IMG/VR virus record: IMGVR_UViG_2721755728_000008
Length of the DNA: 40,851 nucleotides
DNA from: a virus
Taxonomy: Duplodnaviria > Heunggongvirae > Uroviricota > Caudoviricetes
Reading direction: 5' to 3' (one strand)
Part shown: piece by piece, positions 33,001 to 36,000 of the stretch
Numbering within the stretch: position 1 is the stretch's first letter
How the letters are laid out: each line of letters begins with the position of its first letter
Made by a program: the position numbers

Positions 33001-36000
33001 TGAGAACGCCGCCCGTGCCTGCTGGCAAAGACGGCTGAATTATCAGAATTGTGTGGTCTGGAATTTTGCGCCATCGGTTTTCTCCGGTGGCACAGTGTTA
33101 CTCAACAGGGGTTCAGCCCTGTGCTGAATTGTAGATGAATTTACTCATCTTCAAAAGCAGAAAAACCAGCCTTAAGCCCAGCTTCTTTCAGAGACTGCAA
33201 TGATGTGACAAATTCATTTTCACGCAAAATAAAACCATCTGTCACAAGTTCATCCACAAAATAAATTAACGCAGCTCCACTCTTCCTTTGTTTAGATTGT
33301 AAACATTTAATACGGCAGTGACTGACAATAGCACCATTCTCAACGCGCACAGTATAGAGGCCATCTTCAGTAAAAATTTCACGTAATTCTTCGATTTTCA
33401 TCAACAGAATCCTTCCAGATAAATAGCACTCCCCTGTTCGGGGTCCATCCCTCTTATCCCTGCGCGCTACTTAAGTATTTTTGATTCTATTCCGGCACCG
33501 CCCAGAACTTCAAACGCGTTGAAAATAAAAACAAAAACCCGCCGAAGCGGGTTAAATGCGGGTGCGTTGAGAATGCCTGACACATCAGAGGTGGCGAGGG
33601 ATTTCTCCCCCGCCGGGTCTCTTACTCCTCAGATTCGTAAGCTGTGAAGACAGCGACCTCCGTCTGGCCGGTTCGGATTCGTACCTCGCAGAGGTCTTTC
33701 CTCGTTACCAGTGCCGTCACTATGACGGTTAAACAGATGACGATCAGGGCGATTAACATCGCCTTTTGCTGCTTCATAGCCTGCTTCTCCTTGCCTTTCG
33801 GCACGTAAGAGGCTAACCTACGTGTGTAGAGCATAGATATGGCCTCAGATTAATGTTAAGCGTCTTGCCGGACGCGTAATGTTAACTGGGGCTTTTCTCT
33901 ATCTGCCTTTGGTGTTGATGCCCGAGGCAGATAGCCTCAAGCACCCGCAGCAATTCTACTTAACTACCGTTACCTCGCCAATATGAAATCAATCAGAAAG
34001 GTGATCCATAAGAACAACAGCAAGACAATAAATTGCCATTACAGCAGCAATAGCCAGCGCACATTTGAGAACCAGCACCACAACCTCCTGTATTGGACGT
34101 ACACCAGTCCTGATAAATATGAGGCTGTCTCGTCAGTGATTCAATACAACTACTGGGTATAGTTTCTATGATTTTGTTCTGTGGAAATGGAAAACAGCAA
34201 CCAGTCACCACCAGCACTTCTTTAAACATGCCAAGTCACACGCAAGCCAACATTATAGTTCCCTTTGAGCGAGCAGATGAAGCTAGCAAAAATATTGATC
34301 ACTTAGGATGCATTACTAACGTTGCTATGTGTTAACGAACAGGGAGTGGGTCATCAGCATAAATATTTATGCAGTAGGTTTCTTTTAGGACTAGATTAAT
34401 CAAAAACATTTAGATAAAATTATAAAATCAAGAAATTGGTGGCAATTAATCTTTAATTGTGCCAGCTGAATTTCGTTATTATAGAAGATTAGCTTTTTTT
34501 TGAGTGTTTGGAGAGTAAAATGTTAGAACCACCAAAGAGTTATAATGAAATGTTGCCTATGCTCCATAAGGCGACTTTTATTACTACATTTATATTTTAC
34601 CTATCATTAGTCATTTATGGCTACATGCCATTGGTTGGCATTAATGCCAAGTATATCCCCCCCGTTAAAGACTACGAGGAATTTATTAAATGGATATTAA
34701 CCTTTGGCATATTACCAATTGCATCTTCAGTTTTTTGGTCAGTAATTAGTGGAGCTTTAGATCTACATAATAATGTAGCAAAAATTATTGGAATAAGGAA
34801 GATGTGGGATAGTCATTTAATTATTAAACCATTAGCAAAAATTGCAGGCGTTACGAGAAAATTAACTACTGATGAATCTCACAAGGTAATGAGTAAACTG
34901 TATTACCCAGAAGTTAAAGAGTTAAAAGACAAACATTACGTTGAACTTTTCTGGAACAAAGTTTATTACTTTTGGGTTTTCTTTGAACATACAGTAATCG
35001 CATTTGTTACTATTTTAATAATAAGTATCGCCAAATTAACAAATATATTCTCTGTTACTGGCTCTTTAATTAATCTTTGGTTGTGGATTATTTCTCTTGT
35101 CGCATTTGACTTCCTTATTTTCATAGCATCAGTTAAACCAAGAACAGAAAGCCAAGTAAGACAAATACCTGATAGCAAAATAAAAGAATTCTTTAACAAT
35201 AACAATATTTTTTAAACGAGGTTGATTTTGAATTACAAAATAAATGGAATAAACATACGTTCAGAAAATGCAGCGAAACCGCACACTATGCCATCTAACT
35301 ATCTCTGTAAACAGATTGAAAGCACTAATAAAAATGGCAATGCCCTTGATTTTGGATGTGGAAAACTTAGATATTCAGAACAATTAGTAAATAAATTTGA
35401 AACTGTGACATTTTTAGATTCCAGAAGACAACTAGAAAGAGTGCAAATTATCAGAGGTGTACAAACCACGATTCCAGATTACGTGATAAATAACTATAAG
35501 AATGCTAATATTGTTTCTTATGAAAATATAGATAAAATAACAAATCATTATGATTTCATACTTTGCGCAAACGTGCTTTCCGCAATTCCATGTGAATCCA
35601 CAATTCACAAAGTCCTCAGTGCGATTAGAGAATTATTAAAGAGTGATGGTGAAGCACTGATTGTCAATCAATACAAAAGTTCTTATTTCAAGAGGTACGA
35701 GAGCGGTATTAAACATTTGCATGGGTATATATACCAAAACTCTCGCAATGCTTTCTACTATGGTTTATTAGATGTGGATACTGTAAGTAAAATATGCTCA
35801 GATAATAATTTAGAAATAATAAAATCATGGAGCAAAGCAGGTAGTTCATATGTGGTTGTTGGTAAACATATACATATTTAGTTTATTTCAACAAATTATT
35901 AGAAAGAGTGATTTGCTTGTTAATTATTAGCTCGGCAGTGCCGGATCAACATGACCCTGCCACTTAGGCCATTGCCGGTTTACCTACTTTTGTAAGGTTC

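Follow-up and report, generated by a model that had tools for sequence, protein, structure and literature searches.

The 40,851-nucleotide stretch of viral DNA analyzed here (IMG/VR record IMGVR_UViG_2721755728_000008, Caudoviricetes; its full length is hereafter the window) is a lambdoid prophage of Escherichia coli, in the nin-region of which a hok toxin gene adjoins a 29-codon open reading frame (ORF) that we call ORF29. The two are probably separable modules, one a complete hok/mok/sok locus that would span 33981-33530 and the other an independent membrane-peptide gene that would occupy approximately 34144-33989, both on the minus strand (positions are those of the window, and the individual features are collected in Table 1). 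By its sequence anatomy the hok module is a complete and canonical type I toxin-antitoxin locus, with a toxin of the HokD/HokW type, and represents already-known biology. ORF29, to judge from comparative sequence data, looks like a real gene whose peptide is under purifying selection. The first-pass annotation of the window, made from the sequence alone, had described a stand-alone hok of unclear regulation; instead, the full hok/mok/sok apparatus can be recognized in the sequence, as attested by the Rfam match, the tac/fbi helix and the alignment with mokC and sokC described below.

The hok locus and its regulatory parts

The Hok protein of the window is identical to HokD of E. coli K-12 at 50 of 51 residues, the sole difference being Ser49 in the window and Pro49 in K-12, so that the near identity remarked upon at first pass holds. 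Its matches to Pfam HOK_GEF (PF01848; E=1.2e-23, 82.9 bits against a cutoff of 22) and to phrog_251 (E=6e-33) place it within the Hok/Gef family of toxins of approximately 50 amino acids. The regulatory parts are equally recognizable. The Rfam model RF01794, which describes the hok leader and the Sok region, is matched over its full length on the hok strand (33946-33772, model positions 1-157) with a score of 114 bits against a gathering score of 59 (E=2e-25). The first-pass annotation had proposed a comparison with known hok/sok loci and a search for a sok-like antisense promoter and RNA, and the former finds the window locus to align with K-12 hokC/mokC/sokC along the whole messenger, starting at the mRNA 5' end (GGGTGCTTGAGGC) and continuing across the toxin gene. 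That 5' end was set at position 1 of RF01794, which is where homology to the hokC leader starts; the promoter ahead of it is kept in 80 of 89 unique sequences, and its -10 hexamer aligns with the TATAAT of the K-12 hokC locus. In the predicted minimum free energy (MFE) structure, 33946-33935 pairs with 33560-33572 to form a helix of 12 base pairs with one bulge, and the predicted fold of the hok mRNA has a z of -7.5 relative to shuffled sequences. A hairpin that had been noticed near 33900-33935 is real, and is the 5' stem-loop of the hok leader.

A fold-back helix between tac and fbi is the described means by which full-length hok mRNA is kept inactive (PMC9841398), and the stable messenger predicted here would be held in a translationally silent state by the pairing of its 5' (tac) and 3' (fbi) elements. 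Trimming of the 3' end would then allow mok to be translated from its in-frame upstream start, which would drive the synthesis of Hok, and the short antisense RNA Sok, by covering the mok start, would block it. The upstream start had in fact been seen at first pass, where an in-frame extension of hok was described as taking the place of a classic mok overlap. The extension does exist (70 amino acids from the ATG at 33834), and it is mok, since K-12 mokC (16751-16960) and hokC (16751-16903) also have one common stop codon; furthermore, this ATG and the one annotated for mokC align in register. The search for an antisense partner yielded a candidate, in the form of a predicted Sok on the plus strand with coordinates transferred from sokC, preceded by a predicted promoter that is kept in place in 82 of the 89 unique sequences and whose spacing fits the transferred Sok start.

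The loci of Shiga toxin (Stx) phages share approximately 95% DNA identity with the hok locus of the window, and these relatives include hokW-sokW of Sp5, an experimentally shown type I toxin-antitoxin system, sokW included, for which both the toxicity of Hok and its neutralization by Sok have been reported (PMC8621323). More generally, an enrichment of hok genes in prophages has been documented (bioRxiv 10.1101/2025.08.07.668861). The window and Sp5 have in common the toxin family, the succession of promoter, 5' hairpin, in-frame mok, hok, fbi and terminator, the position of Sok (predicted in the window), and the place of the locus in the lambdoid nin-region between the replication genes and rem/DUF968/rusA/Q. 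They differ in that the window has an intact 29-codon gene directly upstream of hok, whereas the O157 loci hold only a decayed 3' remnant of it; otherwise there is no essential difference between the two. Relative to sokC, the predicted Sok hairpin of the window is longer by 18 nt.

Some side observations attach to this locus. The Tyr47 codon of hok is TAC and is followed by G, so that the A-to-I editing motif of TadA, UACG, occurs within GCUUACGAAUC (33636-33639, minus strand). Editing by TadA at UACG reportedly recodes Tyr to Cys in hokB, and a recent preprint is said to describe Tyr-to-Cys recoding by TadA at the equivalent position of hokC, hokD and hokE. Within the hok coding sequence and antisense to it, a promoter-like TAAACA-18-TAACAT (33731-33759, plus strand) is kept in all 89 of the unique homologs, and may either simply reflect coding constraint or mark a second start of antisense transcription, upstream of that of Sok. 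Last, a permissive Rfam scan of 33400-34550 returned nothing besides sok and a sub-threshold match to isrK (33532-33613, minus strand; 25.8 bits against a gathering score of 50, E=0.003) that falls upon the fbi and terminator region. IsrK is an RNA of Salmonella prophages, and the resemblance at the 3' end of the hok mRNA may reflect distant relatedness or chance.

ORF29 as a small gene

ORF29 ends 8 nt upstream of the hok -35, and the hydrophobic 29-residue frame with an AGGAGG Shine-Dalgarno sequence that was listed at first pass is found exactly where it had been placed. The peptide has a grand average of hydropathy (GRAVY) of 1.86, with a core at residues 6-24 that scores 2.7. Homologs were gathered from viral and genome collections with a degenerate pattern over codons 16-25, which yielded 138 copies and 30 unique ORF sequences, and diverged copies were added by independent blastn and tblastn. 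A further pattern match, L015, is due to chance and stands outside the 136 genuine copies, of which 133 are intact (98, 13 and 22) and three disrupted. Conservation extends to the start codon (GTG, replaced by ATG in the Shigella copy), to the TGA stop and to the length of the frame. When only codons outside the search pattern are considered, variable sites number 10, 4 and 16 of 18, 18 and 19 at the first, second and third codon positions, respectively, and the pairwise ratio of nonsynonymous to synonymous variation (pN/pS) is 0.19 in the ORF29 frame, whereas the other two frames give 0.74 and 1.82. Synonymous variation is seen at Leu, Lys, Ala, Ile and Asp codons, and the replacements that do occur are conservative (A/V/T, I/L/V/M, H/R, L/F and S/T). 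ORF29 thus keeps its start, stop and frame, and its peptide shows purifying selection, as is sought in a small coding gene, and these comparative data strengthen what had been put forward at first pass as a small-gene candidate.

The signals that would permit expression of ORF29 are conserved along with it. A promoter-like element upstream of the gene is kept in place at 101 of 115 loci and in 76-87 of the 89 unique sequences, and in the most diverged homologs sequence conservation starts at this very element (approximately 34138-34145). From its position we infer a transcription start near 34109 and, as such, a 5' untranslated region of approximately 31 nt; the leader is no more stable than shuffled sequences (fold of 34115-33947, z = -0.58). 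Most homologs carry AGGAGG, GGGAGG or AGGAGA at the Shine-Dalgarno position, including the copy on the Shigella virulence plasmid pINV. ORF29 would be capable of independent expression, given a sigma-70-like promoter of its own, a leader that is short and unstructured, and a strong Shine-Dalgarno sequence. The window has an extra GTG at 34081, which is GTC or GCC in most relatives, and the 29-residue form is therefore the conserved one. As a terminator scan found none between ORF29 and the hok leader, the ORF29 transcript probably reads through into hok. Other candidate signals were rejected: a terminator-like match at 34054-34035, which lies inside the ORF29 coding sequence and has only three GC pairs, is attributable to chance, and a LexA box sought by eye in the ORF29 promoter came to nothing, the CTG-N6-CAG found there having the wrong spacing and lacking conservation.

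The distribution of ORF29 also speaks to its separability from hok. The stretch 33947-34300 is carried over at least 80% of its length by 1664 complete E. coli genomes, and some of it by 3059; approximately one-third to one-half of complete E. coli genomes harbor ORF29, and some 3600 E. coli copies were found in all. In two lineages ORF29 is intact and hok is missing. In one of these, a convergent DUF1971 gene adjoins ORF29 and the hok leader persists only as scraps. In the other, a homolog of ORF29 resides on 136 virulence plasmids (pINV) of Shigella and enteroinvasive E. coli (EIEC). On S. flexneri pWR100 (NZ_CP037924.1; 2930-3180 of our locus L140) this homolog, MLVLKGTLAIAAVMTIYCLIVVLMERFSD, is found at 3001-3087, approximately 290 bp upstream of icsP, with an ATG start, AGGAGG and TTGAGT-17-CATATT, and downstream of it come the hok promoter and 5' hairpin in decayed form, hok itself being absent. 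That an intact ORF29 is kept where hok has decayed supports selection upon ORF29 itself. The pWR100 homolog, as a further observation, lies inside the long icsP regulatory region used in studies of VirB and H-NS.

The reverse situation, that is, hok loci without ORF29, is met with in sequence type 131 (ST131; L142, 1190-1265) and in O157:H7 (L143, 1160-1255), where the last 20-40 nt of ORF29 remain directly upstream of the hok -35; this remnant stands directly after queH in ST131 and is frameshifted in O157. Furthermore, hok is functional without ORF29, as in hokW-sokW of Sp5. Judging from these sequence comparisons, the ORF29-hok pair probably represents the ancestral state in this lineage of prophage hok loci, from which cargo insertions would repeatedly have clipped ORF29. 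A scan of GTDB species for the ORF29 pattern gave seven matches, one of them the chance match L015. Also among the seven are the short contigs of metagenome-assembled genomes (MAGs) L012, L013 and L016, labeled Collinsella, Scatousia and Haemophilus; these probably stem from E. coli prophage DNA that was mis-binned, and we do not take them to indicate a wider host range.

ORF29 has nevertheless passed almost without a name. The NCBI Prokaryotic Genome Annotation Pipeline (PGAP) calls it in strain B1S11 (WP_000960667.1), and the names that databases give the peptide go no further than 'membrane protein', 'hypothetical' or 'uncharacterised'. The 29-residue peptide matches no family in Pfam, NCBIfam, PHROG or PADLOC. 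An exhaustive phmmer search with the 30-residue form, run against 1.84 billion representatives, brought up no distant relative but only the same locus, re-called from starts further upstream, and a literature search with the peptide string and the WP accession found no paper on it.

The ORF29 product and competing explanations

The product of ORF29 is most likely a prophage-carried small membrane protein of a non-classical kind that would be expressed from a promoter of its own, and not a tightly repressed type I toxin, its lack of toxicity being presumed from the features set out here. Lys5 and the acidic C-terminus suggest that the peptide probably sits in the inner membrane with its N-terminus inside and its C-terminus outside. 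In size, in having one predicted transmembrane helix and in being routinely left unannotated, it resembles both type I toxins (TisB, ZorO, ShoB, Ibs) and non-toxic membrane regulators (MgtS, AcrZ, CydX), but in the family and phmmer searches above its sequence resembled no described family.

ORF29 had been said at first pass to read like a type I toxin, and it might accordingly be the toxin of a second, undescribed type I pair in tandem with hok, with a cis-antisense or nearby small RNA (sRNA) as its antitoxin. TisB and ZorO are small hydrophobic toxins, and a peptide of 29 residues with one very hydrophobic helix is like them in size and shape; by its hydropathy it is a small hydrophobic peptide of the membrane type expected of such a toxin, and it is found on mobile elements beside a proven toxin family. 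Known type I toxin mRNAs, however, have long leaders that sequester the Shine-Dalgarno sequence, whereas the ORF29 leader is short and unstructured and its Shine-Dalgarno sequence is strong, exposed and conserved. In addition, Lys5 and the acidic C-terminus are unlike the basic C-termini that are common in small hydrophobic type I toxins. As to the antitoxin, there is no conserved plus-strand promoter scoring at least 8/12 around ORF29, in a screen that is insensitive (the sok promoter itself scores 7/12). Weak plus-strand sites of 7/12 do occur at 34029 and 34060, but they lie within the ORF29 coding sequence, which explains their conservation. No Rfam match falls upon ORF29, a repeat and complementarity search of 33400-34550 found no notable partner for its mRNA, and the hok-less lineages share only approximately 20 nt past the stop codon, which leaves no room for a shared 3' antisense gene. 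The toxin reading is thus unsupported beyond the size, hydrophobicity and neighborhood of the peptide; the insensitive screen does not amount to a refutation, but a second type I pair appears unlikely to us.

It is also conceivable that ORF29 has no function as a protein, and that the conserved stretch acts at the level of DNA or RNA, be it as an upstream element, as a second promoter for a 5'-extended hok transcript, or as an upstream ORF whose translation matters. Such a role would sit well with the close approach of ORF29 to the hok -35, with the likely read-through into the hok leader, and with the narrow taxonomic range of the sequence. Yet the third-position variation, the conservative replacements and a low pN/pS in the ORF29 frame only are the marks of selection upon the peptide; the gene stays intact, with its start and Shine-Dalgarno sequence, where hok has decayed or gone; and hok loci function in its absence, as in Sp5. 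We hold this account to be quite improbable.

The preferred reading, that of a complete hok/mok/sok locus and an independent membrane-peptide gene, has its own burdens. The expression and translation of ORF29 are predictions from its sequence and conservation, and the ends of Sok and of the hok mRNA are likewise transferred or predicted. The ORF29 promoter matches the consensus at only 8/12, which is below the promoter-scan threshold, and its conservation is the main argument in its favor. The family is confined to mobile elements of Escherichia and Shigella, and its sequences are closely related and not independent of one another. Most homologs were retrieved with a pattern that fixes codons 16-25, a bias that is mitigated by the analysis of the other codons and by the copies found with plain blastn (L008 and L009). 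The insensitivity of the antisense-promoter screen and the weak plus-strand sites inside ORF29 belong on this side of the balance as well.

The picture drawn at first pass, of a stand-alone hok under non-classical regulation whose relBE partners had been lost to an incoming AT-rich island, is correct insofar as relBE is absent and AT-rich cargo lies upstream: tblastn with RelB and RelE found no significant match anywhere in the window, and the window as such lacks the arrangement of the relBE-hokD operon, in which relB and relE stand directly upstream of hokD. The direction of change, however, has to be reversed. The homology of K-12 Qin to the window runs only from 33791 downward, that is, from 14 nt before the hok ATG, and K-12 hokD is consequently without promoter, leader, mok start and sok, with relBE in their place. 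Beyond the toxin gene, the window and the Qin relB-relE-hokD (relF) locus both have rem, DUF968/ydfU and, further on, Q, with rusA in the window sitting between DUF968 and Q. The window-type arrangement is common to thousands of E. coli genomes and to phages with differing upstream cargo, which argues that relBE in Qin is secondary. K-12 hokD is a degenerate and truncated form, the window holds the intact state and Qin is derived; it is relBE that replaced the hok leader in Qin, and the AT-rich island sits in a variable cargo slot. With every regulatory part of hok/mok/sok recognizable in the window and K-12 being the copy that is devoid of them, the stand-alone picture retains very little plausibility. 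That a Cys-rich 78-residue ORF, noticed in another frame of the same DNA, is the real gene and ORF29 its out-of-frame shadow may be dismissed: the ORF does exist in the window, as the longest of this stretch and with an ATG start, but it is not a gene, its ATG being found in only 6 of 90 unique homologs amid frequent stops and frameshifts, with no codon periodicity in its frame upstream of ORF29, a pN/pS of 1.07-1.82 and no family for the peptide in Pfam, NCBIfam, PHROG or PADLOC.

Prophage setting and significance

Several complete E. coli chromosomes, that of strain D1 among them, match the segment 33400-34520 at 100% identity, and in these genomes PGAP provides no annotation at all from the cargo to hokD. 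On the minus strand, the order of genes begins with the replication genes and a DUF977 gene, and continues through the AT-rich cargo block and an unannotated gap of 743 bp to hokD; beyond it lie a Rem homolog, an ORF of 92 amino acids, DUF968, RusA, Q, and finally three tRNAs and the STnc100 sRNA. The AT-rich block (approximately 34250-37250) has a GC content of 30-35% between flanks of approximately 50%, and the right-hand boundary of the cargo slot is sharp, at approximately 34280. In other E. coli genomes and phages the cargo upstream of hok includes DUF4145, an acetyltransferase, QueH and hypothetical proteins, among others. Here, the block (34300-37250) encodes a protein of 235 amino acids without a family, a class I S-adenosylmethionine (SAM) methyltransferase of 219 amino acids and, on the minus strand, a SMEK_N-domain protein of 299 amino acids, the N-terminus of which matches the PADLOC model 'Aga_REase-PNTD' (E=1e-20); the block may be a moron of the defense type.

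On the far side of hok, the Rem homolog (33144-33404, minus strand; 87 amino acids, TTG start) is 72% identical to K-12 Rem, and is labeled by PGAP in identical genomes only as 'hypothetical protein'. Downstream of the Q antiterminator, a full-length STnc100 sRNA (100.8 bits) and three tRNA genes occupy 29284-29456 and 30230-30476 (minus strand), an arrangement that is typical of the late regions of Stx-type lambdoid phages. In a 2026 preprint, STnc100 is reportedly discussed as being related to PasD.

Table 1. Positions of the hok locus, ORF29 and associated features in the window, with the basis of each assignment.
Feature	Position	Strand	Basis
hok toxin gene, 51 amino acids, HokD/HokW type	33622-33777	minus	PF01848, phrog_251, identity to K-12 HokD, hokD annotation in identical genomes
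hok mRNA promoter, TTGGCG-17-TAGAAT	33953-33981	minus	promoter scan, 9/12
Full-length hok mRNA (predicted, ~417-420 nt)	33530-33946	minus	ends predicted
tac 5' end and fbi element	33935-33946 and 33560-33572	minus	MFE fold
5' stem-loop of hok mRNA (tac/ucb region)	33888-33945	minus	inverted repeat 33888-33908 / 33925-33945; first RF01794 helix
mok reading frame, 70 codons, in frame with hok, common stop	33622-33834	minus	ORF list; ATG alignment
Sok antisense RNA (predicted, ~77 nt; hairpin then U-run)	33826-33902	plus	transferred from K-12 sokC by alignment; inside RF01794 match
sok promoter (predicted), TTGCCT-17-TAACCT	33792-33820	plus	read from sequence, 7/12 to consensus
Intrinsic terminator of hok mRNA, AACCCGCTTCGGCGGGTT then T-run	33536-33553	minus	terminator scan
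ORF29, GTG 34078 to TGA 33989, peptide MLVLKCALAIAAVMAIYCLAVVLMDHLSD, predicted single-pass membrane peptide	33989-34078	minus	conservation, pN/pS, hydropathy
ORF29 Shine-Dalgarno, AGGAGG, 5 nt before GTG	34084-34089	minus	read from sequence
ORF29 promoter-like element: -35 TTGAAT (34144-34139), 17-nt spacer, -10 CATATT (34121-34116)	34116-34144	minus	conservation
Cys-rich 78-residue ORF, not a gene	33993-34229	minus	other-frame by-product, overlaps ORF29

As regards hok, the present analysis corrects a tempting misreading, in that K-12 hokD is the broken copy and the window holds the intact prophage locus. A bolder proposal for ORF29 is that it founds a hitherto undescribed family of membrane peptides that are carried on mobile elements and have a real phenotype, and that it has been kept by selection both in E. 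coli prophages and beside icsP on the Shigella plasmid. We regard this as doubtful, if worth entertaining; were it so, the peptide could be a new small toxin, controlled otherwise than the classical type I systems are, or it could modulate the membrane by interacting with Hok or with envelope functions of the host. In any case, ORF29 is a credible and widespread small gene with a clear coding signature that is almost never annotated, it can be counted as a new member among the small hydrophobic proteins of bacteria, a broad class, and it offers a cheap and concrete target for small-protein discovery. Furthermore, an unnoticed transcription unit upstream of icsP could matter for the interpretation of reporter constructs derived from that region.

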